The position numbers and the translations under genes were made by a program. DNA of 64,000 bases from an uncultured Gammaproteobacteria bacterium (GTDB taxonomy: Bacteria; Pseudomonadota; Gammaproteobacteria; Thiotrichales; Thiotrichaceae): NCBI GenBank assembly GCA_963847495.1, contig CAWJZX010000013.1, positions 323,716 to 387,715 of the forward strand. The letters run 5' to 3'. The notes under the pieces are model-generated. The model saw only the letters and a list, made by a program, of their open reading frames with translations, searched no databases and was not told where the DNA came from. The stretch's first letter is position 1; the number at the start of each line of letters is the position of its first letter. Positions 10,063-61,910 of the stretch are shown here, piece by piece.

Positions 10063-10085
10063 ATAGAATATAAATACCAACATCC

Positions 10086-10218
10086 CTTATTTCGACCACA
10101 TCGACGATTCCTTGCAGAATCTACGATGGACTTTCTTGGCTCTTGGTGAGCCTAAGAAAGACACCCCCTACCTTTTTAGCACTTTTCCATAAATCAATCG
10201 AGTCTGACCTCATTGATT
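10086..10218 (+). repeat. Module D plus C-box head plus module I
   Basis: TTTCGACCACATCGACG..GAATCTACGATGGACTTTCTTGGCTCTTGGTGAGCCTAAGAAAGACACCCCCTACCTTTTTAGCACTTTT..AATCAATCGAGTCTGACCTCATTGATT. The right arm overlaps the stop of ORF 10210. Confidence 0.85.
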
Positions 10219-10953: not shown

Positions 10954-11020
10954 TTTGAGTTTTCCACTTTTTTATGAGACGGGAATTACTATAGCTTTTA
11001 GCTGTGCATCTACTCCTCTG

Positions 11021-13190: not shown

Positions 13191-13318
13191 GTATAAGCGG
13201 GGTCAGCGTAAACTTTAATACCTTGCTTTGCAGATAAATATTATTGGCAAGGAGGCTGTCGTACTGATAGATTTATAGCTGTATCTTTTAATGCTGTCGC
13301 ATTTTGTACTTAAAAAAA

Positions 13319-13703: not shown

Positions 13704-13748
13704 AGAATTTTCTCGCTAAACACTTTTATTTTGACTAATCATAATTGC

Positions 13749-13836
13749 AGGTCGGATAAGCATAGCGCCATCCGACATGACCATGATTGATACCACACAA
13801 ATGTCGGATGGCGTACCTTATCCGACCTACCGCGCT
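13749..13836. repeat. REP-like palindromic doublet
   Basis: AGGTCGGATAAG..CGCCATCCGACAT - loop - ATGTCGGATGGCG..CTTATCCGACCTAC. It resembles enterobacterial REP (…CTTATCCGGCCTAC). Confidence 0.8.
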
Positions 13837-15357: not shown

Positions 15358-15534
15358 CCCTGTAGAAACTTAAAAGACCTTACTCGAAGCAAAACCAATC
15401 CAACAATCCTAGCAATTTTTAAAAAAAGTATTAGAATATTTTACAAAAAGCCGTAAAAAATGTGCTTTCCTACTAAAAATTAAGTTATAAAAGTATTTAC
15501 TGGAGACCTCAGTATAACTAACGACTAATTAAGC

Positions 15535-15608
15535 AGAGCGCCATCCGACATGACCATGATTGACCTCAAACAATTGTCGGATGACGTAACCTTATCCGAC
15601 CTACCGCG
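15535..15608. repeat. REP-like palindrome (partial doublet), a direct repeat of 13765-13838
   Basis: GCGCCATCCGACATGACCATGATTGA...TTGTCGGATGACG..CTTATCCGACCTACCGCGCT. Confidence 0.8.
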
Positions 15609-15673
15609 CTACTTTCTTTGACATAGAATTTTCCCGCTAAACACTTTTATTTTGACTAAACACAATTGTAGGT

Positions 15674-17041
15674 TGATGAAATGGTCTCCTCCCCTTAATT
15701 CGGCATCTAAGTACCATAATTGGAGATGAAATATTTCCCAATTAAACAAAGAAGGAGACCACCATGAATATTAGCGCCATCGGGCTAGATATTGCAAAAC
15801 AGATTTTTCACCTTGTAGGCTTAGATGATCAAGGCAATCAAGTACTAAAGAAAACTCTTCGACGAACAAAGTTATTAGCTTACTTTGCTAACCTTAACCC
15901 CTGTGTTATTGGCATAGAAGGTTGTGCAAGTTCACATTATTGGGCACGTGAGCTGAATAAGCTCGGACATCAAGTTAAGCTACTTCCAGCACACTATGTA
16001 AAACCTTATGTTCGAGGTAACAAAAATGATTATAACGATGCTTTAGCCATTGCTGAGGCATGTCGAATTCCTGAAATGCGAGAAGTCAGAACTAAAACTG
16101 TTGAACAGCAAAGCATACAAGCCATGCACCGTTTTCGTCGAGGAGCGGTTGCAGATAGAACAAAGCTTTGTAATCAGGTACGCGGGTTACTTGCCGAGTT
16201 TGGTATTGTTATCAAACAAGGTATCAGCTCTTTGAGAAAGAAGCTCCCAGAAATACTCGAAGATGGAGAAAACCAATTACACTGGATGTTTCGAGATGCA
16301 TTAGCTCTAAAATACAGACAACTATGCGAACTTGATGAATTGGTGAAAGAGCTAACCATCATGATTGAGAGAGAAGCCAAACAACATCTGCAAATCAAAC
16401 AATTGCAAAGTATTCCAGGGTTTGGGGCAATTGTAGCAAGTACCTTCTTTAGCGTGATTGGTGATGGAAAGACTTTTAGCAAAGGCAGAGATGTATCTGC
16501 ATCATTGGGATTGGTGCCACGGCAACACAGTAGTGGAGGTAAAAACATCCTGCTGGGTATTAGTAAACGAGGTGATAAATATCTACGAAGCCTTTTAGTT
16601 CATGGAGCTAGATCAGTTGTGAATCACGCCCATAAGAAAGATGATGCACTGAGTCTTTGGGTTACTCGTTTAGTAAAAACACGAGGAAAGAATAAAGCCA
16701 CGGTTGCTCTTGCGAATAAACTGGCAAGAATTGCATGGGCAGTAACCATTAGCGGTAAGCCATACCAAAGAAATTTTGTGATTTAAAGAAAGTAGTAGAA
16801 ATAAACACATCAACGATTTGCGAGAGACAACAAGTAACGATGACATTATAGGTAAGACCGACATACTGAAACCTGCCTCATCCGAAGGATAGTAAATCCG
16901 ATAGGTCGATTAGGACAGTATGTGCAGACTTCATCAAGGCTCGGGATCTAAAACAATCCTATTATGAAGCCGGATATACGAAAGCAAATCTATCCCTGTC
17001 AATATTACACGTTGTCTTGCAAAAATGGAGGAGACCATATA
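15674..17041 (+). mobile_element. IS110-family element of the IS1111 type, inserted in a REP-like arm
   Basis: It interrupts AATTGTAGGT|CGGATAAG (the intact version is at 13744-13760). Subterminal inverted repeats are ATGGTCTCCTCC (15681-15692) and GGAGGAGACCAT (17027-17038). The 5' lead is short (about 90 nt) and the 3' non-coding tail is long (about 255 nt). Confidence 0.85.
15764..16786 (+). CDS. IS110-family (DEDD) transposase
   Basis: 340 aa with GLDIAKQ, GIEGCASSHYW, KNDYNDALAI and C-terminal IPGFGAIVAS motifs. Confidence 0.92.
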   Translation: MNISAIGLDIAKQIFHLVGLDDQGNQVLKKTLRRTKLLAYFANLNPCVIGIEGCASSHYWARELNKLGHQVKLLPAHYVKPYVRGNKNDYNDALAIAEACRIPEMREVRTKTVEQQSIQAMHRFRRGAVADRTKLCNQVRGLLAEFGIVIKQGISSLRKKLPEILEDGENQLHWMFRDALALKYRQLCELDELVKELTIMIEREAKQHLQIKQLQSIPGFGAIVASTFFSVIGDGKTFSKGRDVSASLGLVPRQHSSGGKNILLGISKRGDKYLRSLLVHGARSVVNHAHKKDDALSLWVTRLVKTRGKNKATVALANKLARIAWAVTISGKPYQRNFVI

Positions 17042-17050
17042 CGGATAAGG

Positions 17051-18800: not shown

Positions 18801-18828
18801 CACACCCCCTACTTTTAGCTACTTTTTA
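18801..18828 (+). repeat. C-box head overlapping the recD stop codon
   Basis: CACACCCCCTACTTTTAGCTACTTTTTA. The recD stop TAA is the complement of 18815-18817. Confidence 0.8.
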
Positions 18829-20698
18829 TCTGCACTTCAATCCTCGTAGCTTTAACCACATCTGCCTTAACCCCAGCCACCAAAACAGCTTCACTCGCCA
18901 CTATATCGACTTTCTGTTTGGCCCGCGTTATTCCGGTATATATTAATTGTCTTGTTAGCAGTGGCATTTCTTCGTGCGGCAAGATCAAAACCACTTGATT
19001 GAATTCTGAGCCTTGGCTTTTGTGAATAGTCATTGCCCATGTGGTTTCGTGCGCTGGCAGTCGTACTGGGGAGAATGCTTTGAACTCGCCTTCAGCTGCA
19101 GGAAAAAACACTTTTACTTCACCATTTTCAATCAGTGTGATTCCGGTATCGCCATTGAACAGGCCTTTGTTGTAGCTGTTCCGGGTGATCATGATCGGGC
19201 GGCCGTGATACCAGTTAGAGGACAAGCTCTGAGTCTGGCTAGTAGAACGCCTGATTCTGATTAAATCCTGTTTGGCTAGTGCAGTTTCGATGCGTTGGTT
19301 CATTAACACACTGCCGTTTAAGCCACGGCGTAAGGCGCACAGGATTCGGTATTGATTGAAAGTCTCGAAGATTTGTTCGTGAGTCGATGCAGGATTATTC
19401 AGCACTTCAAAATAATGTACCCAGGGTTTTATGAGTTCAGCATCGCGCATCGCTTCTGGTGCGATCAGTTTACAGCCAGTGCGGTTTTGATCTTTTAAAA
19501 CGCTGAGTAAGGTCGCGCTATCGCCTTGATTGGCGGCTATCGCTAACTGGCCGATATCGCTGTCTTCCGAGAAGCGCCAGTTCTTTTTCAAGGTAACGAG
19601 ATGCTCTGATTCTTCCAGACCGGCACAGACATCAGAAAATACCGAACCTGTTTCAACAGACGAGAGCTGGTCCTTATCACCAATCAGAATCAGTTTAGCG
19701 TTTGGCGGAACGGATTCTAGCAGTTTTGACATCAGCGCGATATCGATCATCGAGGCTTCATCCACCAGCACCACATCGGCATTCAAGGGGTTTTGAGCAT
19801 TGTGTTTGAATTGCACGCTACCGCGTTGATAACCCAGAAGTTTATGGATCGTGTTAGCCTCAGTCGGCATCTGCTGTAATAACTCATCGGATAAACCAAG
19901 TTTGCTTTGCAAGGCATTTGTTTCAAGCCGTATCGAGTCCAGCATGCGAATCGCTGCTTTACCCGTTGGCGCGGCTAACAGGATGTTTAAATGTTTGTTC
20001 TTATCAATATTTGAGTCTGAAAGGACACCCCCCCACTTTTTACTCGTTTTTTGCAAAAACTCGCCCTTCGGGCTAGCTAAAGCAGTTGTCTCGCTAACGC
20101 TCGGCTGACCACTTTTTTCAATCAGCAATGCCAGAATGCGAGTAATCGTAGTGGTCTTACCCGTACCCGGCCCGCCCGAGATAATCAGGAATCGTTTTTC
20201 CAGTGCACGGCTGGCTGCTATCTTTTGCCAGTTAACTGGCAAGCCTTCATCTTCAAAATAAATATCCAGACGCTGTTGTGCCCAGTCTTTTTGCTCTTGC
20301 TGATCAGTCCCCTCAGCCTCAGGAAACATTCTGGATTTAATCTGATCCGCCAGACGCTGTTGATATTGCCAGTAACGGCGCAGGTACAAATAGCCCTGAT
20401 CAATAATCAGCGGTTTGTAATCCCCTGCTTCGCCCACTACTTTGGTTTGCAATAATTCGACTTGCTGTTCATCCGTTATGGCAATCGCAATCTGGCCTTC
20501 GCGGGTGTGTTTGCTGATTTCCAGGGTGCAGGCTTTGAGGGTTTTATTCTGTGCCTTGTTTGACTCTTGCAATCCATTTAACTCCTGCATTAAATCAGCA
20601 AGCTGGTAATCGAGCGCTTCATAAGCTGCCGGCTCAGCTTCTATTGTGTCAGGCGCTTGTGTTGATACGGCAAAATCCATTGTGAGTTGTTCAGCCAT
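18815..20698 (-). CDS. recD: Exodeoxyribonuclease V alpha subunit RecD, carrying an in-frame repeat-derived insert
   Basis: 627 aa with Walker A GGPGTGKTTT, then LLAAPTGKAA, and helicase motifs through TIHKSQGSE. The start overlaps the recB stop (ATGGCTGA). Confidence 0.92.
   Translation of the reverse strand: MAEQLTMDFAVSTQAPDTIEAEPAAYEALDYQLADLMQELNGLQESNKAQNKTLKACTLEISKHTREGQIAIAITDEQQVELLQTKVVGEAGDYKPLIIDQGYLYLRRYWQYQQRLADQIKSRMFPEAEGTDQQEQKDWAQQRLDIYFEDEGLPVNWQKIAASRALEKRFLIISGGPGTGKTTTITRILALLIEKSGQPSVSETTALASPKGEFLQKTSKKWGGVLSDSNIDKNKHLNILLAAPTGKAAIRMLDSIRLETNALQSKLGLSDELLQQMPTEANTIHKLLGYQRGSVQFKHNAQNPLNADVVLVDEASMIDIALMSKLLESVPPNAKLILIGDKDQLSSVETGSVFSDVCAGLEESEHLVTLKKNWRFSEDSDIGQLAIAANQGDSATLLSVLKDQNRTGCKLIAPEAMRDAELIKPWVHYFEVLNNPASTHEQIFETFNQYRILCALRRGLNGSVLMNQRIETALAKQDLIRIRRSTSQTQSLSSNWYHGRPIMITRNSYNKGLFNGDTGITLIENGEVKVFFPAAEGEFKAFSPVRLPAHETTWAMTIHKSQGSEFNQVVLILPHEEMPLLTRQLIYTGITRAKQKVDIVASEAVLVAGVKADVVKATRIEVQIKSS
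20024..20119 (+). repeat. C-box head plus F-like module, in frame inside recD
   Basis: GACACCCCCCCACTTTTTACTCGTTTTTTGCAAAAACTCGCCCTTCGGGCTAGC...GTTGTCTCGCTAACGCTCGGCTGACCACTTTTTTC. It is near-collinear with the intergenic copy at 34957-35059. Confidence 0.85.
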
Positions 20699-23600
20699 TC
20701 ACAACCGCCATACTAGGTAATCGCATAAACAAAGCATCCAATGCCTGAATCAATTCAAGGCTGGGTTTATGAAAAAAGACACCCCCCCACTTATAAGCAC
20801 TTTTTGAAGATTTCTGTAGTTGTTTAGGTGCTGTATTCATTCCGCGTATAAACAGATAATAAACACCGCCGATATGCGTTTCCCAGCTGTAATCAGCAAG
20901 TCTCTGTTCTAAATACCGATGTAAAGCAACGCAGTAGAGCAGATATTGCAGGTAATAATGAGAATGTGCCATTGCCTCGAATAGGCTGTCTTGCTGATAA
21001 TCAGAGAGACTATTCGATTTGTAATCGGCAACATAGTATTTGCCATCATGCTCGAAAATCAGGTCGATAAAACCTTTCAGATAACCTTCGACTTCTTCGA
21101 AATAGAGACCATCAACCGCATCACGGATTTGTTGCCAGTTGGCATCATCCTTTGGTAGATGCTGAAACAGAATCTGCTTTAAATGATCTGTCTGCAATCG
21201 TTCCAGCGGTAGATAGAATTCCATCTCATTGAGGCGTTTCTCATTGCTTAACAGGTTTAGAGACAATCCATCTGTTAGCTCCGCCTGTAAACTCTGTTGC
21301 ATTAACTGCAACGCGCTCGCCTGGTGTTTTGGATCAAAACCGTATTTATTCAAGCTCGCTTCAATCACATCAGTTTGTTCTTCAATGGGTTTGATGAAAT
21401 CCAGATTCTCGTAGATTTCATGCAATACCGTACCTGCGGTTGCACCACGCGGGAATTCATCCACCTCAATGGTATTCTGAGCCTCTGCCTTATTCATCTG
21501 TAGTGAGCCAGACATTGAATCAGCAATGGAATCATAATCAGGCGTTTCAGCATGAGCACCTGAGGTCAAACCACTGAAACTGGTGATCTGTGCCTGCTTT
21601 TTAATTTCTGCAGTAAAGTGTCGTGCAACGAGTTTTTCTTCAGAAACTGTCTTCTGATATTTCAAATCTGTCGGATAGTCTGGAAGCGCATTCAGTGAAA
21701 TATGCGGATTACTTTGGGTCAGGCTTTGCAGGTTTTGATTGTATGCCTCAAAGTATTCGGCTTTTTCAGTAGTAGCTTGTTTCGAGTTTCCAGAAGGAAT
21801 AACTTTTCCATCAGTGAGCAACCAGCCAAATGCGGATTTATCCGGATTTCCACTAATCGCTTCGGGAAACACGACTACGTTACATTGATACTTGGCACGA
21901 GTCAGCGCGACATATAATAAGCGTGCGTCTTCGGCGCTTTCTTCCGCTGCTTTCAATGCTTTATGTTCGTCACTTTCAGGCGAACCAATTTCGAGATAAC
22001 TTAGCTTATCTTTATGAAATGTATAAATTTTATCGGATGGACGATTACTACTCATGCCCACAAATGGACAGTAAACAATCGGGTATTCCAGACCTTTGGA
22101 TTTATGGATGGTGACGATTTTTACCAGGTCATCGTCGCTTTCAAGGCGCAATACGGTCTCATTCGAGCTGGCATTTTCCTGTTGTTTTTTCAGCCAGCGC
22201 AATACTTCAGCCATACCGAGCATTTGCTGGCGTGATGTGTGATGAATCAATTCTGACAGCTGTAAAATATTACTTAAGCGACGCTCGCCATTATCATAAT
22301 CCATCAGGCGCTGATGCATGTTCTCGGCTTTCATCAAGCTTCGCATCATCGGCATAAAACCCTGTTTATTCCATTGATGATGATAATTTTGCATCTTCAT
22401 CAGGACTTCTTCCCAGGCTTCGCTATCGGTCTGGAAACGGATTAAATCTTCGGCCTGTCGACCCATCATTTCTGTCACCAATGCGCGACGGATTTCATCT
22501 TCTTTTTGCGGCGACACAATCGCCGTGAGTAAACGCAGCATTTCAGCGGCTTCATGTGTATCGTAAATACTCTCTTTGCTACTCTGAACGCTGGCAACTC
22601 CGCGTGCATTCAAAGCTGCCTTGATAACATCAGCCTGCGTATGTGAACGCACCAGAATTGCCATATCTCCGCCGCTAATTGCCTCATCGCCAATTCTGGC
22701 TTCACCGTTTGTGGCTTGATTAAGTAAGGATGCAATATCGCCTGCCACGGCGTTTGCAATCTGTTTGCGAATGAAGTCGGCGGTGGGTTTATCGTCACCA
22801 GTTTCATATCGCCAAAAATTTAAAGGCTTGCTGTTATTCTGGCTAACTAATTCAGCGGTTGTTTTATCTCCTGATTTTACCTGAACGTATTCAATCCCCT
22901 CATCCTTAAATGGATTTTCTGTCTTTGAATACAATGCGTTAAAGGCGCTAATTAAATCAGGATGTGAACGCCAATTGGTTTGAAGCGTGTAATGATTCGT
23001 TTCAGAAGTGTCCGCCTTGGCTTTTAAATAGGTATGAATATCACCGCCACGGAAACTGTAAATAGCCTGTTTTGGATCACCCACCAGAAATACCGTCTGG
23101 TCTTTTTGGGAAGTGTAAATAGAACTAAAAATATCGTACTGGATAGGATCGGTATCCTGAAACTCATCTATCAAGGCCGCCGGGTATTTACGGCTTAATT
23201 CTTTTGCTAATTGTGGATGCGCTTTTAACGTTTGCTGCATCTGCAATAACAAATCATCAAAGGATAAAACGCCTAAGCGCTGTTTTTCCTTAGGGAGTTC
23301 AGTTTGTAAATGTTGCAGTAACTCTACGCGGATATTGTTCAGGAAATCATCTGAGCTTTTATCCAGCTCAGTCCAGAGATCGAGGAAATCCTGCCATTGC
23401 TGGAAAAATGGATGTTCAATGGGTTCTACGTTTTTAGCAGTTTTTTTAACTTTGGGTGTTGTACCCAACCAAACCATTTTTTTAACATCAAGCTGATAAG
23501 GCAGATCATCTAACAGCGATAGTTTATCCATTTCTGTAATGACAAAATCACAGTTATCAATTAAGCCTTTATAGTAATGGTTCTCGTAGCCGGGAATCCT

Positions 23601-40778: not shown

Positions 40779-40948
40779 TCTTATACAAGAACCTTAGAAT
40801 TGATACATCATATTTAGCAACAATTAGTAAAATGCGATGCTCTAGACCAAGAGTATAGTAGCTATAGAGTTACTTATTGATTCAGGTCTGTGCATTTCAC
40901 AAAAACTATTAAAAGGAGTGTATAGGTTCTCCCTTATAATGATAAAAA

Positions 40949-41029
40949 GACACCTCCCTACTTTTAAGTGGTTTTTCATTTCGTTTTTTGAAATGACTAA
41001 AAGAACTTATGCAAAGCTAAGGCATTTTT
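40949..41029 (+). repeat. Short-form C-box element (head joined directly to tail C)
   Basis: GACACCTCCCTACTTTTAAGTGGTTTTTCATTTCGTTTTTTGAAATGACTAAAAGAACTTATGCAAAGCTAAGGCATTTTT. Confidence 0.85.
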
Positions 41030-42339: not shown

Positions 42340-42445
42340 CCTTGTTTCGACCAGCAATCGACGCTTCCTTACGGAATCTACGGTAGACTTTCTTGGCTCT
42401 TTGGTAAGCCTAAGAAAGACCCTCCTACTTTCAAGGCATTTTTTG
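42340..42445 (+). repeat. Module D plus C-box head
   Basis: TTTCGACCAGCAATCGACGCTTCCTTACGGAATCTACGGTAGACTTTCTTGGCTCTTTGGTAAGCCTAAGAAAGACCCTCCTACTTTCAAGGCATTTTTT. Confidence 0.85.
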
Positions 42446-48903: not shown

Positions 48904-48969
48904 GGGGAGAGATTAGGTTAGAACTGAAACTGTTTCAATGGATTATAAATGAGATTTTATATTTAAAAG

Positions 48970-49116
48970 CACACCCCCCTACTTTTAAGTGATTTTTATG
49001 CGGCTGCGCCTTCCCTACCGGTCAGCATTAAACAACAATGCTGTTGTCTCGTTTCACTCGGCTCATTTCGTTTTTTGAAATGACTAAAAGAACTTATGCA
49101 AAGCTCGGCGGTTTTT
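48970..49116 (+). repeat. Full-length C-box element (head plus B plus tail C); used as the reference copy
   Basis: CACACCCCCCTACTTTTAAGTGATTTTTATGCGGCTGCGCCTTCCCTACCGGTCAGCATTAAACAACAATGCTGTTGTCTCGTTTCACTCGGCTCATTTCGTTTTTTGAAATGACTAAAAGAACTTATGCAAAGCTCGGCGGTTTTT. Confidence 0.9.
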
Positions 49117-50659: not shown

Positions 50660-51805
50660 TCAGCCACTGTCCAGATATGGGGAGTTTATCAAGGCGGTAA
50701 TGTGCATAATGGCCTTTTTACAGCATGGACAGGGCAGTCCGTTAAAGGGTTCTACCGGTTGCTCTACTTTGTCTGCGCAGGACACCTGTTGATGACTTTT
50801 TTCCTGCACCATTGCTTCTTTGATCCTGGGTAGTTTCTTTGCCCGACTGGCATTCGCCAGCCAGCCAAAGTGCCGTACCCGCATAAACCCTTTGGGAAGG
50901 ACATGCTGTAAGAAGCGCCTGAGGAATTCGGTACCTGCCAGTGTCATGATCTTTTTCCGGTTGTCACGGTAATCTCGGTAGTGAAAACTGACAGTATCCC
51001 CATCCATATGACTCAAGCGGCTGTCAGACAGCGCAATGCGGTGGGTATAGCGTCCCAGATAGTCGATGATACTACGGGCTTGCTGCAAACACGGTTTGGC
51101 AAAAACCACCCACGTTTTCTGCATTAAAGTGTCTAGAACAGTCTCGATCTCTCCCTGGTGTGTTACTCGTGATAAGTGCCCTGTCTTGGCAGCATTACAC
51201 AAGGCGCTGACCATTTTTCCACGAAAGCGTTTGGACAAGGCCTTGACGGGAAACAGATAGGTACTCTTAGCAGCATGCCATTGACCATCATGACTGAGGG
51301 CTCCGCCGGGAACCAGACAATGCAAATGAATATGCTGGTCAAGTGTCTGGCCCCAGGTGTGCAATACGGCGGTCATACCCAGTTCGCCATTGAGGTGTTT
51401 AGGATTCTGGCCAAAATCGGATAGGGTCTGCCAGACACTGGCGAAGAATAAGTTATAAATCACTCGGGGGTGCAGCCTTACCCAGCCATTGAGGGTATGC
51501 GGCAGGGTAAACACCAGATGGTAGTAGGTGACCGGTAACAGATAACTGGCCTGTCTGTCACACCACTGCTGTGTAGCCTGGTGCTGGCAGCGGGTACAAT
51601 GCCGGTTGCGGCAGGCATGGTACAAGATCGCCTGATGACCACATTGATCACAACGTAATGCAAAACCACCCATAACCTCTGTGCGGCATTGCTGTAGGTG
51701 GCGGCACACAGTGAGTTTCTGATGACTCAGGGCTTGTTGCTGTTGCAGGGCGGGTAAAAACTGTTCCAGTACTGCCTGCATACGCAATCTAGACATGCTC
51801 GGCAA
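50660..51805 (-). CDS. IS91-family transposase
   Basis: 381 aa with an N-terminal Cys-rich zinc-binding region (CDQCGH...CRNRHCTRC) and HxH motifs (HIHLHCLV) typical of the IS91 Y2 transposase. Confidence 0.85.
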   Translation of the reverse strand: MPSMSRLRMQAVLEQFLPALQQQQALSHQKLTVCRHLQQCRTEVMGGFALRCDQCGHQAILYHACRNRHCTRCQHQATQQWCDRQASYLLPVTYYHLVFTLPHTLNGWVRLHPRVIYNLFFASVWQTLSDFGQNPKHLNGELGMTAVLHTWGQTLDQHIHLHCLVPGGALSHDGQWHAAKSTYLFPVKALSKRFRGKMVSALCNAAKTGHLSRVTHQGEIETVLDTLMQKTWVVFAKPCLQQARSIIDYLGRYTHRIALSDSRLSHMDGDTVSFHYRDYRDNRKKIMTLAGTEFLRRFLQHVLPKGFMRVRHFGWLANASRAKKLPRIKEAMVQEKSHQQVSCADKVEQPVEPFNGLPCPCCKKAIMHITALINSPYLDSG

Positions 51806-52646
51806 GCCTCAGGTGTGCGAGCAAGTCAATGCTTCGGCCACCTTCACCCGTTTCTGGTAGCCAGTGTGTGTAGCGTAAGGTCGAGTTTAGGTGTCGATGC
51901 CCCAGCTGTTGTTGCAACTGATGGATCGGCATTCCCTGTTGCAGGCAGTGGGTGGCATAGGCGTGGCGCAGACTGTGAATACCACCCGGTTTATCGATAC
52001 CAGAGTGCTGTTTTGCCCGTTGGAACACCTTCTGTGGTGTCGTCATACCAATATGAGAACCGGATTTCTTTCCGGGAAACAGGCAATCTGGTGGACGGTA
52101 GCGGAACCAGTAACGCCGTAAGTGGCATAACAAGGTCATGCCGATTGGAATTAGCCTATCCCGATGCCCTTTTCCCTGGGTCACACGTAACAGCTGCTGT
52201 TGACCATCAATATCAGCAACCTTTACTCGAGTCAGCTCATTGACACGCAGCCCACAGCCGTAACACAGTTTCAACATCATGCGATCACGCACCCGCAAGG
52301 GTGCACAGATAATCGCTGCAACTTCCAAGGGATTTAGCAGAGTCGGAATCCGCTGCTGTTGTTTAGGCAGAATAAAACCATGACTGACGAAATCATCCCG
52401 TTTGAGTACACGGGTAAATAAAAAACTGACACTATTGAAATACAGGTGACAACTGGACGGAGCCAGTTGCCGTTCCTTGGTCAGATATAACAACCATTGT
52501 TCAATCTGATGCAGGGACAGGCGATCAGGGGATTGCCCGGCGTAATGTGCCAGGCTCTGAACCCCAGCCAAATAGGTATCTTGTGTTCGCTGGCTAAAAC
52601 CATGCAGCAGCATGGTATCGATCATTTGTTGACGTAAGGGCGTCAT
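51789..52646 (-). CDS. Tyrosine recombinase (phage-integrase family) associated with the IS91-like transposase
   Basis: 285 aa with the catalytic region ...GLRVNEL...HSLRHAYATH...LGHRHLNSTLRYTH. It overlaps the transposase gene. Confidence 0.85.
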   Translation of the reverse strand: MTPLRQQMIDTMLLHGFSQRTQDTYLAGVQSLAHYAGQSPDRLSLHQIEQWLLYLTKERQLAPSSCHLYFNSVSFLFTRVLKRDDFVSHGFILPKQQQRIPTLLNPLEVAAIICAPLRVRDRMMLKLCYGCGLRVNELTRVKVADIDGQQQLLRVTQGKGHRDRLIPIGMTLLCHLRRYWFRYRPPDCLFPGKKSGSHIGMTTPQKVFQRAKQHSGIDKPGGIHSLRHAYATHCLQQGMPIHQLQQQLGHRHLNSTLRYTHWLPETGEGGRSIDLLAHLRLAEHV

Positions 52647-52845: not shown

Positions 52846-52959
52846 ATTTGACTTGTCATTCTTGGCTTTTGGTAAGCCTAAGAAAGCCACCCCCCCCTAC
52901 TTTTACGTGGTTTTTTTCATTTAACTTAATGAAAACCACGCCCTTCAAGTAGTCGTCGC
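52846..52959 (+). repeat. Partial module D plus C-box head plus module F (left part, split by IS110 copy 2)
   Basis: CATTCTTGGCTTTTGGTAAGCCTAAGAAAGCCACCCCCCCCTACTTTTACGTGGTTTTTTTCATTTAACTTAATGAAAACCACGCCCTTCAAGTAGTCGTCG. Confidence 0.85.
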
Positions 52960-54148
52960 TACGCTTGTATGGTAATTCCTGCCCTTATCTACGATCATAG
53001 TTAAGGCATCGGGGAGGGGGAGGTTTTTCGCTACGTATCTGCCACTAGAATGTGTACAGACTGTTGGAGATATCACCCCTCCGCCCCACTCATCAATAAG
53101 CGCCTATAAAGAATCTTGCCCGCACGGCCGATTTCAACAAGCTTGCGCTATCGATGTTCCCCGACTTCTCTACAATACTCTGGAGTAAATCTTATGGCAA
53201 TGATGACAGTTAACACTGAACTCGGAATAGACGTAGCCAAAGACTGGCTTGATATTTCTAATGGTAAGGACGTTGTACGTATCAAGAATAATCAACAAGC
53301 AATAAAGAGCTATCTTAAACAACTAGGTACAACGGCGTGTATTTCAATTAAATCAACAAATACGTACCATGAATTATTTGTTGAACTAGCCTTTCTTGCC
53401 AAGCATACAATCTATATCGTCGATGCCTATAGGCTCTCACGCTACCGTGATGCCGTTGGCATCAGGGCTAAAACAGACACCAATGATGCCCATTTATTAT
53501 TGCGATATATGAGATCAGAAAAGCAACACCTGACTGTTTTTGAACCTATTCCAAAAGCCGTTAAACGCCTTAATCGCTTACTTAAAGCACGCGCTAAACT
53601 GGCTAAATCAAAAGCATCCATTGGCCTTTCTCTAAAAGGTGTCGCAGAGTTAGCACAAACATGTAAAGCCCTAATGAAACGGATTGAACAAGCGATAACG
53701 TTGATTGATAAACGTATTCAAGCCTGCATCAAAGACGCTGGATATAAAGAAGATTACATGCGTTGTTTGAGCATTCCAGGGATCGGTCCTGCTAATGCGG
53801 CGGCCTTAGTTGCGATGTTTCATCGCGGACACTTTCGAAAATCAGACTCGTTCATCGCCTTCATTGGACTCGATGTGAGAGTACGTGAATCAGGATACTA
53901 CAAAGGTAGGAGAAAACTAACCAAACAAGGAAACCCAGAAATACGAAGATTGCTGTTTAATGCAGCAAGAGCTGCCGCAAGAACAGAAACATGGAATAAC
54001 TACTATATGTCTATGAGAGCACGTGGACATTCAACAACCGCTACTGCGGTTTCGCTCTCTCGAAAAATAGCTAGATTAGCTTTTGCTTTGCTAAGAGATC
54101 AATCTGAATTTAGAACTGCGTAAGTGTTTGACAATTACCATAGAATCT
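52960..54148 (+). mobile_element. IS110-family element, copy 2 (diverged from copy 1; boundaries +/- about 8 bp), inserted in a C-box module
   Basis: It splits ...GTAGTCGTCG | IS | CCAACATTGTCT.... The intact equivalent at 54737-54770 reads GTAGTCGTCGTTTCACACCAACGTTGTCT. The end sequences match copy 1 (GCTTGTATGG... and ...CATAGAATCT). Confidence 0.8.
53194..54123 (+). CDS. IS110-family transposase with a Glu-to-Lys change at the conserved DEDD glutamate
   Basis: Likely start at ATG 53194 (MAMMTVNTELGIDVAKDWL). It is about 70% identical to copy 1 by eye. SIKSTNTYH replaces AIESTNTYH (AAA for GAG at about 53350). Confidence 0.85.
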   Translation: MAMMTVNTELGIDVAKDWLDISNGKDVVRIKNNQQAIKSYLKQLGTTACISIKSTNTYHELFVELAFLAKHTIYIVDAYRLSRYRDAVGIRAKTDTNDAHLLLRYMRSEKQHLTVFEPIPKAVKRLNRLLKARAKLAKSKASIGLSLKGVAELAQTCKALMKRIEQAITLIDKRIQACIKDAGYKEDYMRCLSIPGIGPANAAALVAMFHRGHFRKSDSFIAFIGLDVRVRESGYYKGRRKLTKQGNPEIRRLLFNAARAAARTETWNNYYMSMRARGHSTTATAVSLSRKIARLAFALLRDQSEFRTA

Positions 54149-54990
54149 CCAACATTGTCTATGAAGTACTTCCCTGTACTTCACCTCTTCGAGGCAGCTT
54201 CGTTTCACTCAACTGTTCAAATTCATTCCAGATGAATTTGTCGGTTTCACTCGGCTTGGCACTTTTTTAGCAAAGAACTATTTTCTAACCCCCCCCCCCA
54301 TTCAAACAAGCCGAGCCACGCAGGAAATTGACGATAAAAGCTGTAGCTGTTTGAGCGTCAGCGAGTTCTACAGCCGCGTCTATTTTCGAGTAGTGAGGCG
54401 ACTACATGGACGTAGGAGGTAGAGCAACGCAGGAGCAGTTGCCGAGAACCGTTTACGGCTTGTTTGTTGAACAGCCTTTTGTTTGGTTCTGTTTATTTTG
54501 GCTGCGCAAAATAAATGAACTCGTAGCTTCGCTACGAAACCATTGAAATGACACCCTCCTACTTTTAGCCTGTTTTTTAAACAGACTGCCCAAATACCAG
54601 TATCCCTTGCTGCAACCACCTCTCGGATCAATTCTTGACCGTTCGAGACAATTTGTCCGCCCTAGCGGCTTAACAAATCGACTTTTACGTGGTTTTTTCA
54701 TTTAACTTAATGAAAACCACACCCTTCGGGTAGTCGTCGTTTCACACCAACGTTGTCTCGGCTGCGCCCCGGCTAGGCTCTTTTTCAAAACTGTTTGAGA
54801 TCAACCACCTCTCAGATCAGTTCCTGATCTAATCGAGATAATTTATTGGCCCTAGCGGCCTAATAAACCAACTTCACCTCTTCGAGGCAGCTTCGTTTCA
54901 CTCAACTGTTCAAATTCATTTCAGATGAATTTGTCGGCTGTGCCTCGGCTAAGCCGTTTTTCATTAATTTCTGCACAATGCATTCATCAG
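54149..54990 (+). repeat. Composite non-coding array of C-box-system modules (F-end, G, H, head, E, F, E, G)
   Basis: The whole interval is contiguous and each segment has at least one homolog elsewhere in the window: G at 54163-54268, H at 54300-54526, head at 54550-54578, E at 54613-54686, F at 54686-54775, E at 54802-54875, and G at 54875-54962. Track ORFs 54380..54631 and 54453..54701 lie in it and are judged spurious. Confidence 0.85.
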
Positions 54991-55015
54991 AAGTTAATTA
55001 GCTGACTGCTATAAT
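54965..55015 (+). promoter_or_regulatory. Repeated promoter/operator module upstream of ORF 55045
   Basis: Near-palindrome AGTTAATTAGCT (54992-55003) is followed by an extended -10, TGCTATAAT (55007-55015). It is homologous to 55452-55507. Confidence 0.45.
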
Positions 55016-55044
55016 CATACAAAATAAAAATAAAGGAAAGCCGA

Positions 55045-55413
55045 ATGACTGCGCTAACACTATCGCCTTCAGAGAAAAAAGCCTACGGTAAAGCGGTAGG
55101 AGAAATTCTTGTTCGGGACCACGGCAAAAGACAGTACTATTCCAGCTCAGAAGTACACATGGCTTCTCGTGAAGTGTTGAAGCCAGGCTTTGACTGGCAT
55201 TGCTGGGCGATGTCTTTGTATACCTCGCCCACTGAATTCAAGTCATACCAGGATTCTATTTGTGAAACATGCGACTATGCCGCGATGAAAGCTGATATGA
55301 CATCTGCCTTAACCGATGGTGCTTCTGGTTCCTGGTTTGATGTTGATGTCTCATGGCTTGAGTGGCCTGATATTGAGTTACCGTTGATTTTTGATTTTTT
55401 TGATGGTGTTTGA
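55045..55413 (+). CDS. Hypothetical small protein (122 aa)
   Basis: Intact ORF with a GGAAAG Shine-Dalgarno-like element; cassette-like context. Confidence 0.5.
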   Translation: MTALTLSPSEKKAYGKAVGEILVRDHGKRQYYSSSEVHMASREVLKPGFDWHCWAMSLYTSPTEFKSYQDSICETCDYAAMKADMTSALTDGASGSWFDVDVSWLEWPDIELPLIFDFFDGV

Positions 55414-55425
55414 TTCATTTAAAGA

Positions 55426-55452
55426 GACACCCCCCACTTTTAGGTACTTTTT
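55426..55452 (+). repeat. C-box head
   Basis: GACACCCCCCACTTTTAGGTACTTTTT. Confidence 0.8.
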
Positions 55453-55507
55453 CATAAACTTGCTACGCAATACATTCATGAGCAGTTAATTAACTAACTG
55501 CTAAAGT
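55452..55507 (+). promoter_or_regulatory. Repeated promoter/operator module upstream of the NERD gene
   Basis: Perfect 12-bp palindrome AGTTAATTAACT (55484-55495) is followed by TGCTAAAGT (55499-55507). Confidence 0.4.
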
Positions 55508-55548
55508 ACCAACAAAAACCTAAAATAATCATTCAATAGGATTACGTT

Positions 55549-56118
55549 GTGATACTTAAAGAAATAGACAAAAAAGAAGCTTTAATAAAACACGAAGAAT
55601 ATGGTTATAAGGCAGAAAAACAAATGGCGTTCTATTTAAAAAGAGCTTTCCAGGATAATAAAGATATCCATGTGATCAATGATTTACGTCTTGAAATGAA
55701 TGATGATGTCGCTCAAATAGATCACTTAATCATTCATAGGTTCGGTTTCTTAATTGTAGAATCTAAAAGTGTCACTTCTAAGATATCAATCAATGAATAC
55801 GGGGAATGGACTAGGCATTATCCTAAATTTACTAGAGGTATACCATCCCCTGTAAATCAAGCTAGAAGGCAAGCTGACTTTCTAAAAAACTTCCTTATGG
55901 CAAGGACGGAATACCTTCTCAAGAAATCATTAATTTTTCAGGCATCAGTAACTGATTTTAAATTCGACGTTTCGGTGGCAATATCTGATAGCGGTATTAT
56001 CAACAGGGCTAAAAATACAAATCTATCTGAAGTACACAAGGCAGACCAAATCACTGATGCGATAAATGAAATAATTTCAAGCTATGCTGGTACAAACAAA
56101 AACCTCCTTACCCTATAA
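55549..56118 (+). CDS. NERD-domain (nuclease-related) protein, N-terminal part
   Basis: 189 aa. GYKAEKQMAFYLKRAF...HVINDLRLE...AQIDHLIIHRFGFLIVESKS matches the NERD domain. GTG start. Confidence 0.7.
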   Translation: MILKEIDKKEALIKHEEYGYKAEKQMAFYLKRAFQDNKDIHVINDLRLEMNDDVAQIDHLIIHRFGFLIVESKSVTSKISINEYGEWTRHYPKFTRGIPSPVNQARRQADFLKNFLMARTEYLLKKSLIFQASVTDFKFDVSVAISDSGIINRAKNTNLSEVHKADQITDAINEIISSYAGTNKNLLTL

Positions 56119-56145
56119 GTTAATTATCAATTTGCTAATTCAAGT

Positions 56146-56523
56146 ATGAACAAAATCACAAGGTATCTTATTCAATCTCACAGACCAAAAATATCAAGTA
56201 GACTAGACTCAGAAATAAAAACCGTTGTAACAGAAACAACCTTAAAACCAGCAACTAAGATAACTTCCGCAGAAAAACTAGAAAATAAAAACGACAAAGT
56301 TTGCAGTAAGTGTAAATCTGAAAATATCGAAATTGCACATGGTAGGTTTGGCTATTACTTTAAATGTACCGACTGTAATGGAAACACCTCTATTAAATTG
56401 AAATGTAAAGATGATGCTTGTGACGTACGCTTAAGAAAGCAGAAACTAAATTTCTATAAAGAATGTGGAACATGCAATATGTTTGAGTTGTACTTTGTTA
56501 ATAAGGTAATCGAGGAAGTATGA
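56146..56523 (+). CDS. Topoisomerase-type C4 zinc-ribbon protein, in frame with the NERD ORF
   Basis: 125 aa with CSKCKS...CTDCNG and a second Cys cluster. It is in the same frame as 55549..56118, separated by one TAA (56116-56118) and nine sense codons. Confidence 0.55.
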   Translation: MNKITRYLIQSHRPKISSRLDSEIKTVVTETTLKPATKITSAEKLENKNDKVCSKCKSENIEIAHGRFGYYFKCTDCNGNTSIKLKCKDDACDVRLRKQKLNFYKECGTCNMFELYFVNKVIEEV

Positions 56524-56538
56524 AAACACATTAAAAGT

Positions 56539-56640
56539 GACAACCCCCTTCTTTTAGCCACTTTTTCTATAACACCGCTGTTTTTAACTCCCATTCCAAA
56601 CAAGCCTAGCCACGCAGGAAATTGACGATAAAGGCAATTT
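56539..56640 (+). repeat. C-box head plus truncated module H
   Basis: GACAACCCCCTTCTTTTAGCCACTTTTT ... CCATTCCAAACAAGCCTAGCCACGCAGGAAATTGACGATAAAGGC. Confidence 0.8.
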
Positions 56641-56772
56641 TCAGGACATCCAACAGGAAGTCATTCTATAGAGCCACTTAAATCATGATGTAGACAGATT
56701 GTGTGTATCTCCAAAATTCTCCTGATATATCAATAGGCAGGCTTGTTACTTTAATTACTGTTTTTTGGTTTT

Positions 56773-57051
56773 CTATCGCTGCTTTACCCTGATAAATTGC
56801 GGCTGGATAGGATAAGGCATTTGAGGTACATAAGAATAATATGGTGGTGGCATCGGATAATAGTTACCGTAAGGCCCGTAGTACATCGGACCACGTTGCC
56901 ACATTGTATACGGACTACCGTAACCACGCATATTGTGCTTCCCATGTTTTTTCTTACCACAAAATCCTGCTGCTTCGGCAACCATGGGTGCCGCTATTAT
57001 GGCAGCTGCTATCAAACTGGTTTGTAAAATTGATTTCATTACGTTCTCCAA
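56773..57051 (-). CDS. Secreted Tyr/Pro/Gly-rich small protein
   Basis: 92 aa with a signal peptide, then GYGSPYTMWQRGPMYYGPYGNYYPMPPPYYSYVPQMPYP. Confidence 0.6.
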   Translation of the reverse strand: MENVMKSILQTSLIAAAIIAAPMVAEAAGFCGKKKHGKHNMRGYGSPYTMWQRGPMYYGPYGNYYPMPPPYYSYVPQMPYPIQPQFIRVKQR

Positions 57052-57235
57052 TTATCTACTTACGGATAGTGTTCAATGGTAGACCACGCTTTTTTATCAA
57101 TTTACTGTTAGTTTGATATTAAAACGCTCGATAACCGGGTATTCGCCTACCCAGCTACGCCCGTATTTTAATTCTAGTTCATTTTCACCAGTTTTTATTA
57201 CTCGATAATAATTAGGGTCAGAGTAAAATAAAAAT

Positions 57236-57590
57236 GACACCCCCCACCTTTTAGGCACTTTTTCCAAATATCACTGTTTTTAATCCCTATCCAAAAAAGC
57301 TGAGCCACGCAGGAAATTGACGATAAAGGCTGTAGCTGTTTAAGCGTAAGCGAGTTCTACAGCCGCGTCGATTTTCGAGTAGTGAGGCGACTACATGGAC
57401 GTAGGAGATAGTGCAACGCAGGAGCAGTTGCCGAGAACCGTTTACGGCTTGTTTGCTGGGCAGCCTTTTGTTGATTCGACTGCGTCTCACCCTAAAGGGC
57501 TATCTTTCTGTGAAAGATATTGTCTCACTAACGTTCGGCTGGTTGTTTATTTTGGCTGCGCAAAATAAATGAACTCGTAGATGGCATTAG
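57236..57590 (+). repeat. C-box head plus a full module H (second copy, with an internal insertion of about 75 nt)
   Basis: GACACCCCCCACCTTTTAGGCACTTTTT ... AAGCTGAGCCACGCAGGAAATTGACGATAAAGGCTGTAGCTGTTTAAGCG...CCGTTTACGGCTTGTTTG...GTTTATTTTGGCTGCGCAAAATAAATGAACTCGTAG. Track ORF 57287..57490 is judged spurious. Confidence 0.85.
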
Positions 57591-57925
57591 AAAGACCGGC
57601 AGGCATGCGCAGCTCATTTCATGGTTGTAAAAGTAATATTCCGCTAATATGGTTTTGACCTTGTCTAAATATTTTTGCCAAAGCGAATAATATTTGGCGT
57701 TTTTAGCAAAATTATTTTCTAGCTAAATAAGGCTAAAATTATATTTATTATTATATAATTTTCACATGAGCTACAAATAATGCGAGAAGTAGTATGTTTA
57801 ATATAACTGCAATTTTATCCCGTAAATTGCGAGTGGTGTTACTACTGCCAAAGAGTTTTACTGATTGCCAACCGCCACTATTCGCAATCAGAACAGGGAA
57901 GTCCAAATAGAAGGAATATTTATCC

Positions 57926-58677: not shown

Positions 58678-58982
58678 GCTTCCCCCGATCTTTTAAGGAA
58701 ATATCAATGCGGTAACCCGTATATATATTATTTATAGCCTGGATAAGGCACGCCATCCGACTTTTGGATGTGATCAACGATGATCGTGTTGTACGGCGCT
58801 ATCGCGTATAAGACCTACGCACTGAAGCTTTTTTCTGAACTCGTAGCTTCGCTACGAAATCCTTTTAAAAGACACCCCCTGCTTTTAGACATTTTTTCCC
58901 TTGCTTCTACCACCCCTCGGATCAATGCTTGATCTGTCGAGACAATTTGTTCGCCCTAGCGGCATAACAAATCGACTTTTCT
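58678..58982 (+). repeat. Degenerate head, REP-like doublet, CGTAGC hairpin, C-box head and module E
   Basis: CTTCCCCCGATCTTTTAAGG (58679); GGATAAGGCACGCCATCCGAC...GCGTATAAGACCTACGCAC (58741-58828); CTCGTAGCTTCGCTACGAAA; GACACCCCCTGCTTTTAGACATTTTTT (58871); CCACCCCTCGGATCAATGCTTGATCTGTCGAGACAATTTGTTCGCCCTAGCGGCATAACAAATCGACTTTT. Confidence 0.8.
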
Positions 58983-60837: not shown

Positions 60838-60928
60838 AGGGTGCCTGGCTAAGGCACTCCATCCAGCTTTTAGTGTGATCAACGATGGTCATGTCGTATG
60901 GCGCTATCGCTTATAAGACCTACGCACT
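60838..60928. repeat. REP-like doublet
   Basis: CTGGCTAAGGCACTCCATCCAGC...GTCGTATGGCGCTATCGCTTATAAGACCTACGCAC; a homolog of 58741-58828. Confidence 0.7.
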
Positions 60929-61699: not shown

Positions 61700-61910
61700 A
61701 TATTGTAGCTCCACTACGAAACCTTTATAAAATATTCCCTTGTTAATGAAGTACATCCCTGTAATACACCTCTTCGAGGTAGTTTCGTTGCACTCAAATT
61801 TCAAATACATTCCAGATGAATTCGTCGGCGATGCCCGGCTCAGCAAAACACTATTTTTAAATCCCATTTAGACAAGCCGAACCGCGCGGGAAATCGATAA
61901 TTGAGGTTTA
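61700..61910 (+). repeat. CGTAGC-type hairpin plus module G plus truncated module H
   Basis: TTGTAGCTCCACTACGAAA; GAAGTACATCCCTGTAATACACCTCTTCGAGGTAGTTTCGTTGCACTCAAATTTCAAATACATTCCAGATGAATTCGTCGG; CCCATTTAGACAAGCCGAACCGCGCGGGAAATCGATAA. Track ORF 61676..61867 is judged spurious. Confidence 0.75.

Follow-up and report, generated by a model that had tools for sequence, protein, structure and literature searches.

Short repeats that accumulate between genes and assemble into mosaics are best known from the repetitive extragenic palindromic (REP) units, with their bacterial interspersed mosaic elements (BIMEs) and their REP doublets forming hairpins (REPINs), and from the modular BOX elements of Streptococcus pneumoniae, built as boxA-boxB(n)-boxC. 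Rickettsia palindromic elements (RPE) are short repeats tolerated in frame within essential protein genes, and we know of no BOX element described as strand-polar or translated inside genes. In this work, we characterize a mosaic repeat system in a 64,000-nucleotide stretch of DNA (hereafter, the window) from an uncultured gammaproteobacterium of the Thiotrichaceae (GenBank assembly GCA_963847495.1, contig CAWJZX010000013.1, positions 323,716 to 387,715 of the forward strand), in which a short head repeat is combined with hairpin-bearing modules, and we take the copy at positions 48970-49116 of the window as the reference element.

Two groups of insertion sequences (IS) bear on this system. 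In IS110-family elements guided by a bridge RNA, the left target guide (LTG) has the same sequence as the left target on its top strand, the right target guide (RTG) is the right target in reverse complement, and both guides include the core (Durrant et al. 2024, PMC11208160); further, the IS110 transposase of ISPpu9 moves a small non-coding module (ssr9) alone, forming circles (PMC12288879). IS200/IS605 elements, studied in IS608, display a strand and replication bias with a preference for the lagging-strand template (PMC5027513).

Our results are consistent with a three-layer nest of selfish DNA, in which a polar head anchor receives hairpin mini-elements and bridge-RNA IS110 copies insert into the latter, a reading to which we assign a probability of about 0.6. 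It is built upon features observed directly, namely the anatomy and nesting of the elements, an insert that was gained or lost at orthologous positions, compensatory stem changes, the identity of the IS110 copies, and the match between their guides and flanks.

Anatomy of the reference element

The head is a non-palindromic repeat of ~38 nt, of a form without dyad symmetry, with the consensus TTAAAA-GACA-C(5-7)-TAC-TTTT-A followed by 5-6 weakly conserved bases (loosely GGCAC) and T5, according to a logo of 255-328 copies drawn from the window and from Cocleimonas loci. The head-bearing loci of Cocleimonas and relatives that were compared with the window are designated L018, L058, L100, L108, L109 and so on. 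Solo heads read CTTTT-A-GGCAC-TTTTT, and the head of the reference copy at 48970-49116 reads CACACCCCCCTACTTTTAAGTGATTTTT. Two hairpins are present in this copy, CAGCATT (49023-29)/AATGCTG (49037-43) and CATTTC (49064-69)/GAAATG (49077-82), and the element ends in GCGGTTTTT. Its parts and the related short form are as follows:

48965..48986, + strand: 5' part of the head (H5), AAAAG-CACA-CCCCCC-TAC-TTTT, the conserved anchor of the logo
48987..48997, + strand: left arm of the C-type palindrome, AAGTGATTTTT (11 nt); in the short form (40966-41018) it runs straight into the right part
48998..49063, + strand: B-type element of 66 nt nested in the C-type element, a clean indel relative to the short form, with its hairpin at 49023-29 / 49037-43
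49044-63, + strand: 3' block of B, TTGTCTCG-TTTCA-CT-CGGCT, of the IS110 target type
49064..49105, + strand: remainder of the C-type element, CATTTCG-TTTTTT-GAAATG ... AGAACTTATGCAAAGCT, with 100% identity to 40976-41018
49106..49116, + strand: 3' part of the head (H3), variable 5-6 nt (CGGCGG) plus T5, pushed to the far end by the insertions, as in recD
40945..41029, + strand: short form, composed of head, uninterrupted C-type element and H3, lacking exactly the 66-nt B block

The short form reads as a head followed by AAGTGGTTTTT-CATTTCG..GAAATG..AGAACTTATGCAAAGCT and H3. In alignment A7 the reference element equals the short form plus 66 nt placed after AAGTGATTTTT, and therefore the stretch previously considered a separate tail C forms, together with the 11 nt after the head, one C-type element with B nested inside. 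The initial annotation of this DNA had read 48970-49116 and 40949-41029 as copies with and without one block, and the head, both hairpins, the end and the clean 66-nt difference were recovered as it described them; the parts of its linear head, B and C order are thus real, whereas the architecture is nested, with B in C, C in the head, and IS110 copies in B or in the related P-type elements. Its suggestion that whole elements fold into long hairpins was not upheld, since whole elements folded as RNA on both strands were no stabler than shuffles (z -1.4 to +0.7). The C copies at 40976-41018 and 49063-49105 are 100% identical over 43 nt and have unrelated neighbouring genes, an identity that suggests recent activity or conversion.

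Heads within recD and recB

The same anchor is found inside two protein-coding genes:

20020..20118, + strand: head (20020-39), 66-nt P-type element (20040-20105) and H3 (20106-18), translated in frame within recD (minus strand)
20772..20805, + strand: head within the 3' end of recB, in frame as ..YKWGGVFF.., with the same head in L108

The recD head is read in frame as ..KKWGGV.., and relatives down to ~65% protein identity encode KWGG or KVGG at the corresponding place of the alignment; judging from these alignments, this head is old and appears to be vertically inherited. In L108 the site reads CACTTT|TGGGCACTTTTTT, with no insert (DNA alignment A3), the window carries a 66-nt P-type insert at the point that is empty in L108, and L109 harbors a longer, related P-type insert at the identical point. 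Because the recD head spans Cocleimonas species and the module occurs only in some of them, the head would constitute an older anchor, and not the common end of the modules that it had been taken for. Among the RecD relatives compared in protein alignment A1 (P0002, P0003-5 and others), P0003-5 lack the insert although they are nearer to the window protein than P0002, which has one, and therefore either independent gain or precise loss took place. No target duplication is visible at the recD insert; TACTCG-T6 on its left is a conserved part of the P subfamily, also present at 34974 and in L108. A further head provides the end of the gene: the last three or four codons of recD and its stop (..IKSS*) lie within the head at 18805 (18805-18830), and L109 (8040-8075) likewise ends in ..KSA*. 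With the stop and the last codons supplied by a head, heads can therefore remodel protein C-termini.

Additional in-frame insertions are found elsewhere in the RecD of relatives, for instance ..NPLSLEGEGGGEGES.. in P0003-5 (alignment A1, columns 445-470), suggesting that RecD accommodates further short repeats as well. L109 contains an extra block of ~80 nt upstream of its recD head (6700-6790). In the window, a fragment of ~180-210 nt at 12979-13191, near the head at 13323 and ~5.6 kb from the gene, is 78-81% identical to the 3' part of recD (18831-19043) and also matches recD of L108 and L109; it is presumably a pseudogene fragment or a duplication.

Abundance, distribution and polarity of the head

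Looser searches identified 28-34 heads on the + strand of the window and 0 true copies on the - strand, the overall count being 33-36 on the + strand, about 1 copy per 1.8 kb, and a 19-mer of the head with <=3 mismatches gave 7 matches vs 0.04 expected by chance. Runs of at least five C outnumber those of five or more G by 39 to 7, and with at least six bases the counts are 22 and 0. Heads are located in 33 of the ~60 gene junctions, tending to adjoin gene 3' ends on either strand. All four junction types are represented roughly in proportion (-- 12, +- 8, -+ 6, ++ 4), and therefore head orientation is independent of the neighbouring genes; a coupling of head orientation to gene orientation was ruled out by this spread. 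Beyond the window, the exact 17-mer of the head is confined almost exclusively to Cocleimonas genomes and metagenome-assembled genomes (MAGs) plus a few related uncultured gammaproteobacteria, is common among metagenome contigs, and was not found in viral contigs. Head density differs greatly between species.

The polarity of the head extends to the genus. Of the 103 heads in 30 loci outside the window, each with at least three non-doublet heads, 88 share the majority strand of their locus, a bias reached in 0 of 20,000 simulations, and across the genus 102 heads were counted on the locally C-rich strand vs 43 on the opposite one (p = 1e-6). In the window, the + strand has a negative GC skew throughout and genes lie mostly on the - strand; given this skew, the C-rich form of the head falls on the presumed lagging strand, with its G-rich form (GTAGGGGGGTG) on the presumed leading strand. 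A dnaA locus, sought for an orientation flip at the origin, was not present among the fetched loci.

Regarding structure, the head allows at most a 4-bp stem, and its mutual information is restricted to neighbouring positions, with no covariation between H5 and H3 in 255 copies. The complement of its variable hexamer is not enriched upstream, and downstream only weakly (37 vs 15 of 295, 12.5%). The head as a hairpin or intrinsic terminator was consequently ruled out by the lack of a stable stem and of H5/H3 pairing and by an orientation independent of gene strand. A simple scan of gene ends in the window shows few convincing canonical intrinsic terminators.

In other Cocleimonas MAGs (L018 at 908-970 and 4568-4640, L026 at 3419-3465, L092, L020 and L095), the head is followed by a fixed extension, ..TTTTACATGATG. 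Heads of this kind often form perfect inverted doublets, once without a spacer (CACACCCCCCTAGTTTTACATCATGTAAAACTAGGGGGGTGTG), a REPIN-like state not seen in the window.

Module families

The modules belong to several families, of which the following representatives were located in the window in addition to the C- and B-type copies given above:

54687..54774, + strand: complete P-type element, with the F hairpin, CCCTTCGGG, a block resembling GTCGTCG..CTCCAAC, and TTGTCTCG-N-C(C)CGGCT
54613..54686, + strand: E element with two hairpins; other copies at 37150, 54802, 58907 and 60398
10075..10160, + strand: D element; its 3' hairpin arm AGCCTAAGAAAG directly adjoins the following head; also at 42345-42418 and 52857-52886
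52905 and 54687: module F
10192-10218: module I
9981 and 17051: module J

In the window, the C-type tail AGAACTTATGCAAAGCT is found in 5 copies vs 0.5 expected, and TTGTCTCG-N6-CTCGGCT in 7 vs 0.9. C-type elements are palindromes of ~55 nt, with 33 matches across Cocleimonas loci, and they lie directly behind the ..CTTT(T) of heads, behind the ..CTCGGCT of B- or P-type elements, or behind another C copy; their 3' tail, ATGCAAAGCT, has no palindrome partner. B-type elements (13 matches) occupy the same position within the C-type element in 6/6 full examples, and B-like copies also follow other T-runs, at 13469 and 28447. A B-bearing C-type copy follows an intact C-type copy in L100 and directly follows the head in the window. 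The wider P-type family, which includes B, consists of a variable 5' hairpin, CCCTTCGGG, often GTCGTCGC-N5-CTCCAAC, and then TTGTCTCG-N5-6-CTCGGCT; its copy at 54687 is inserted behind ..CGACTTTT; this 3' terminus of an E element resembles the ..CTACTTTT of the head.

These recurring blocks, more frequent than chance and accompanied by heads on the + strand only, agree with the initial annotation in that the repeats are modular and share a single orientation. Modules D, E, F, I and J were encountered where it had placed them, with the difference that F is the 5' hairpin of the longer P-type element instead of an independent module. The compensatory changes that it had recommended looking for in the stems were found in C, B and E, in 6-27 related copies. 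In the C-type stem, 76.3% of cells are paired vs 68.5% in shuffles, with 26 double-change cells vs 10.5; the B hairpin reaches 92.9% pairing, and 4 of its 7 pairs have changed on both sides (slid controls, 24-69%); and the E stems are 91.7% paired, with 4 pairs changed on both sides.

A separate repeat of 188 nt occurs as copies with 93% identity at 54296-54483 and 57285-57472, with partial copies at 56582-56635 and 61854-61907. It starts just after a head or C-run (..CCAAACAAGCCGAGCCACGCAGGAAATTGACGATAAAGGCTGTAGCTG...), has no Rfam match at E <= 1, and may represent a further, larger module type.

IS110-family elements and their putative guides

Three open reading frames (ORFs) of the window contain the Pfam domains DEDD_Tnp_IS110 and Transposase_20. 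Two of them belong to elements, here IS-1 and IS-2, that are inserted within modules:

31121..32311, + strand: IS-1 (ORF 31339-32283), within the B block of a head, C and B element (31030-31120 and 32312-32373)
31218-25: RTG-like sequence of IS-1, TAGCCGAG, with an LTG-like segment at 31184-95
52964..54146, + strand: IS-2 (ORF 53116-54123), within a P-type element at GTCGTCGCTACG-CT-CCAACATTGTCT
53062-69: RTG-like sequence of IS-2, TGTTGGAG, with the LTG-like TCGCTACG at 53028-35

The IS-1 transposase matches that of IS621 (E 2.8e-16), and on domain content and homology both elements are assigned to the IS110 subgroup of the IS110 family, that of the bridge-RNA recombinases. They have common ends, with a left end (LE) starting CT-TGTATGG, a right end (RE) finishing CATAGAAT-CT, and the junction G-CT-TGTATGG; there are no terminal inverted repeats, and the relation to the uninterrupted target is scarless. 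The core CT is present at the junctions of IS-1 (31121-22 and 32312-13) and of IS-2 (52964-65 and 54147-48). Fused through one CT, the IS-1 flanks yield the reference element, and the uninterrupted counterpart of the IS-2 target is found at 54722-54760. The target of IS-1 is GTCTCGCTGAAG-CT-CGGCTCA, and that of IS-2 is GTCGCTACG-CT-CCAACAT.

The guide-like segments follow these targets. The RTG-like TAGCCGAG of IS-1 is the reverse complement of CTCGGCTA, a 7/8 match to the actual flank CTCGGCTC, and the RTG-like TGTTGGAG of IS-2 is the reverse complement of CTCCAACA, with an 8/8 match to the right flank; the two 8-mers differ from each other exactly as the targets differ. On the left side, the LTG-like TCGCTACG of IS-2 matches its flank 8/8 and is not contiguous with the core. 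In a copy in L058, the LTG-like TCACTTCGTT fits the flank TCACTGCGTT at ~9/10, and the change between TCGCT and TCACT tracks the left flank. The LTG-like TCGCTTTGCT of IS-1 displays a partial fit to its present flank TCGCTGAAGCT (TCGCT-TTG-CT vs TCGCT-GAAG-CT). In the predicted LE fold, guide segments lie on both sides of an internal loop, with a G-rich/C-rich closing stem and a capping hairpin, so that the modelled layout is that of a target-binding loop. Homing of IS110 elements into abundant intergenic repeats is known biology, and the guide-target pairs proposed here are new.

The possibility that the reference element is a MITE-like (miniature inverted-repeat transposable element) derivative of the IS110 copy at 31 kb, generated by internal deletion, was ruled out: the IS110 copy ends (CTTGTATGG.. 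and ..CATAGAAT) are unrelated to B, C or other module sequence, and the IS lies inside an otherwise complete element. In L058 (4964-5065), only the first ~15 nt of an IS-1-type left end (GCTTGTATGGTTGTT) stand behind a B-type element and are joined directly to a C-type right arm, possibly the deletion scar of an IS110 copy.

The third IS110-family element, at ~15676-17049 (ORF 15764-16786, + strand), is considered IS1111-like because of its long RE and its 12-bp subterminal inverted repeats (ATGGTCTCCTCC / GGAGGAGACCAT). It appears to split a classical REP unit as AATTGTAGGT|IS|CGGATAAGG, an intact unit for comparison being present at 13744-13762. Upstream of this element, 65 nt (15609-15673) are found again at 13688-13752, across a REPIN, and module J (17051 and 9981) starts right after the end of the element. 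Classical REP- or REPIN-like palindromes, GTAGGTCGGATAAG..CGCCATCCGACA [loop] TGTCGGATGGCG..CTTATCCGACCTAC, are located at 13749-13830 and 15530-15611 on the + strand, and at 58737-58823 and 60843-60928 on the - strand. According to self-BLAST they are the sole repeats of the window in both orientations, and they constitute a family separate from the head system, with a close likeness to enterobacterial REP units.

Genomic context

Domain and ORF annotation depicts an ordinary chromosome, with hemN, recB, recD, rnr, isocitrate lyase, nnrS and hipA. The window RecD shares 65% identity with that of Cocleimonas flava and 80-88% with proteins of metagenomic contigs, and the plasmid database returned no match for the stretch of the window between 48 and 52 kb. 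By its genes and matches, the DNA is assigned to a Cocleimonas-related (Thiotrichales) chromosome, neither plasmid nor phage. No tRNA or tmRNA was found in the window, which gave zero Rfam 15 matches at the gathering score; at E <= 10 or E <= 1, nothing relevant was retrieved for 30900-32500 and 54100-57700. No paper on repeats in the genus Cocleimonas was found in the literature.

Among other mobile elements, an IS91-family Y2 rolling-circle transposase gene (Y2_Tnp and Zn_Tnp_IS91) lies directly downstream of, and overlaps, a gene for an XerC/D-like tyrosine recombinase (50660-52646, - strand), and an IS3-family element (rve) is located at 7763-8919. At 10210-12779 (- strand), three tandem paralogous ORFs (247, 176+93 and 250 aa) have common segments of 80-177 nt with 84-88% identity (10799, 11694 and 12631), and no Pfam domain except for a weak EF-hand match.

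Discussion

The proposed hierarchy would operate as follows. Its first layer would be the non-palindromic head of ~38 nt, old, vertically inherited and present in more than half of the intergenic junctions. The second would consist of the C, B/P, E and D families, hairpin-bearing and non-autonomous elements of 50-90 nt ending in ..GGCT or ..AGCT, which would insert site-specifically and in one orientation directly 3' of ..ACTTT(T), in the head or in its mimic at the 3' end of E, leaving no visible target duplication. They would also insert into one another, so that the reference element would be a head split by a C-type element, itself split by a B-type element. In the third layer, bridge-RNA guides encoded in the IS110 LE would fit the conserved 3' blocks of B/P, with homing via the CT core. 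Of the two suggestions made in the initial annotation, recombination among structured units or a set of non-autonomous mobile elements sharing their ends, the latter is the better one in what it says of non-autonomous mobility; the sharing of ends falls with the role of the head as an anchor. Likewise, sharp boundaries and differing orders speak for combinatorial modules, although part of the apparent combinations stems from IS110/IS1111 insertions and classical REP palindromes.

Movement of the second layer would require a site-specific recombinase or transposase acting in trans, recognising ..ACTTT(T)^ and the ends ..GGCT / ..AGCT. One candidate is an IS110-type recombinase acting on small circles that contain the module only, like those formed from ssr9 by the ISPpu9 enzyme, and three such genes are present in the 64-kb window. 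Another would be an HUH single-strand transposase of the IS200/IS605 kind or a REP-associated tyrosine transposase (RAYT), which would fit insertion 3' of a motif, the absence of duplication, the hairpin ends and the strand bias. Ten of the 38 ORFs between inverted heads in other species, inspected by reading the sequence, looked housekeeping-like.

Several points weigh against this account of nested selfish DNA. No enzyme for the second layer was found: tblastn with IS200 TnpA and E. coli RayT retrieved nothing from 0.83 Mb of head-bearing DNA, nor when 1.4 Mb were covered, with approximate queries that would detect only close homologues. The strand on which insertion occurs 3' of ACTTTT is the + strand, by GC skew the leading-strand template, opposite to the preference of IS608; for its part, GC skew gives a noisy estimate of the direction of replication when taken over 8-kb loci. 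The recD alleles could reflect precise loss instead of gain. Module junctions display neither terminal inverted repeats nor target duplications, which makes classical MITE logic inapplicable, and their dinucleotides differ (T-A/T-T on the left; T-T/T-G/T-A on the right), a loose fit to an IS110-type core. Finally, the covariation comes from 6-27 related copies whose kinship inflates the shuffle control, and the C alignment is partly out of structural register; the stem changes in C, B and E are thus supportive, not conclusive.

The polarity of the head, which would reflect the direction of replication, invites other explanations. The head might be a host-selected polar signal co-oriented with replication, as are Chi or the FtsK-orienting polar sequences (KOPS), or a protein-binding site, with modules merely using it as a safe landing site. 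Its one-sided orientation in the window, its preference for the C-rich strand across the genus, its maintenance at the same site across species, and a lack of palindrome and H5/H3 covariation, which suits a duplex or protein-bound site and not a hairpin, are all in line with such a signal; nevertheless, known polar motifs are of 5-8 nt and mostly intragenic, whereas the head has ~38 nt and lies nearly always in gene gaps or gene ends, it is inserted in frame in recB and recD in the manner of a mobile element, perfect inverted doublets in related species cancel the polarity, and head density varies strongly among species, and we consider this explanation unlikely. Equally tentative is a version in which the head is a replication-polar landing pad where site-specific machinery, possibly RNA-guided or IS110-related, captures, stacks and exchanges hairpin cassettes in an integron-like manner, the polarity perhaps being used by the host as a Chi/KOPS-like or fork signal. 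Integron-like or dif-like recombination sites, with modules as cassettes exchanged by a tyrosine or serine recombinase, would account for sites in direct orientation throughout, for a single fixed insertion point with parts of the site on both sides of the insert, and for inserts in series, and an XerC/D-like recombinase gene is present at 51789-52646; yet this gene adjoins the IS91 element and probably belongs to it, the head lacks dyad symmetry and R/L boxes of the attC kind, the inserts carry no copy of the conserved H5 half that head-head cassette exchange would leave, and modules also insert outside heads, after the ..GACTTTT of E and after T-runs in C. We regard such sites as improbable.

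A role as functional structured RNAs or transcription signals (elements of 3' untranslated regions, terminators or small RNAs), instead of mobile DNA, is also improbable in our view. Heads that adjoin the stop codons of genes on either strand and terminate in T-runs, compensatory substitutions in the hairpins, and the scarcity of convincing terminators in the simple scan would suit it; but orientation disregards gene strand, divergent junctions included, in-frame copies occur inside ORFs, Rfam gave no match at gathering or relaxed thresholds, whole elements fold no better than shuffles on either strand, the head forms only a 4-bp stem without covariation, and identical copies stand beside unrelated genes. 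As for modules being random truncation fragments of one longer element, the common 3' block of B and P and the common ends of C variants do reveal related families, but module limits are sharply defined and recur from copy to copy, a given unit can stand alone, be nested or change its order, and the sole long elements, the IS110 copies, are inserted into modules and are not ancestral. Together with the presence or absence of the recD insert and the compensatory changes in the stems, sharp boundaries and differing orders therefore dismiss the scenario of truncation without covariation that the initial annotation had named as its refutation, and we give it very little credence.

Bacterial mosaic repeat systems form a small set (REP/BIME, BOX, REPIN), to which the nested reading would add a well-resolved one. 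Unusual in it are an anchor that is non-palindromic, perfectly strand-polar in the window and present about once per 1.8 kb, and that is tolerated long-term within RecB and RecD, as well as a parasite-on-parasite hierarchy of mini-elements in the anchor, others in mini-elements, and IS110 copies in those. Natural IS110 guide-target pairs that differ between sister elements are of use in studying the natural reprogramming of bridge RNAs. Should the polarity be linked to replication, the head would offer a tractable test of the long-standing question of whether repeat bias stems from mechanism (single-strand or fork-coupled insertion) or from selection (a polar host signal).

Comparison with known systems

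REP/BIME of enterobacteria and the REPINs of Pseudomonas, which RAYT Y1 transposases mobilise, resemble the head system as short, abundant repeats of gene gaps, with long vertical inheritance, mosaic formation and use as preferred IS110 targets, and the inverted head doublets of some Cocleimonas species recall REPINs. The head differs from them in having no palindrome and no stem covariation, in carrying GTAG, the conserved 5' motif of the imperfect REP palindrome, on the - strand without a hairpin, in its strict single-strand polarity in the window, in receiving inserts inside the repeat, and in coexisting with a true REP-like palindrome (GTAGGTCGGATAAG...); moreover, no RAYT, whose gene typically has REPs on its flanks, was found with the approximate queries in the 1.4 Mb of head-bearing DNA sampled. 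BOX elements, to which the initial annotation likened the repeats and which are compared here by architecture, are likewise modular, short, intergenic and non-autonomous units with hairpin potential, arranged however in a linear A-B-C array, in contrast to the nested insertions into the anchor and into each other described here.

Regarding mobile elements, IS-1 and IS-2 resemble IS621, ISPpu9 and ISPpu10 in their domains, IS621 homology, long LE, CT core, flank-matched putative guides and high-copy intergenic target; they differ in that their targets are 3' blocks of B/P instead of REP hairpins, and in that the LTG match of IS-1 is imperfect. IS200/IS605 elements and their miniature derivatives, the palindrome-associated transposable elements (PATEs), also insert in one orientation 3' of a short sequence (a fixed tetra- or pentanucleotide in PATEs) without duplication, and have subterminal hairpins and a strand bias. 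The differences are an inferred active strand on the leading-strand-template side, left-end hairpins that vary by subfamily, and no TnpA found with the approximate queries in 1.4 Mb. The recD (..KKWGGV..) and recB (..YKWGGVFF..) heads resemble RPE as in-frame repeats in essential protein genes, and differ from them in lineage and sequence. The terminal inverted repeats and target duplications of MITEs are absent from the module junctions, and the head logo contains neither the R''-L''...L'-R' palindrome nor the GTTRRRY core of attC sites; furthermore, genes flank heads on both strands, and the sole tyrosine recombinase gene of the window adjoins the IS91 transposase. Distinct from REP palindromes, MITEs, attC sites and terminators, the system behaves in the manner of REP/BIME or BOX mosaics and of the associations between REP units and IS110 elements.

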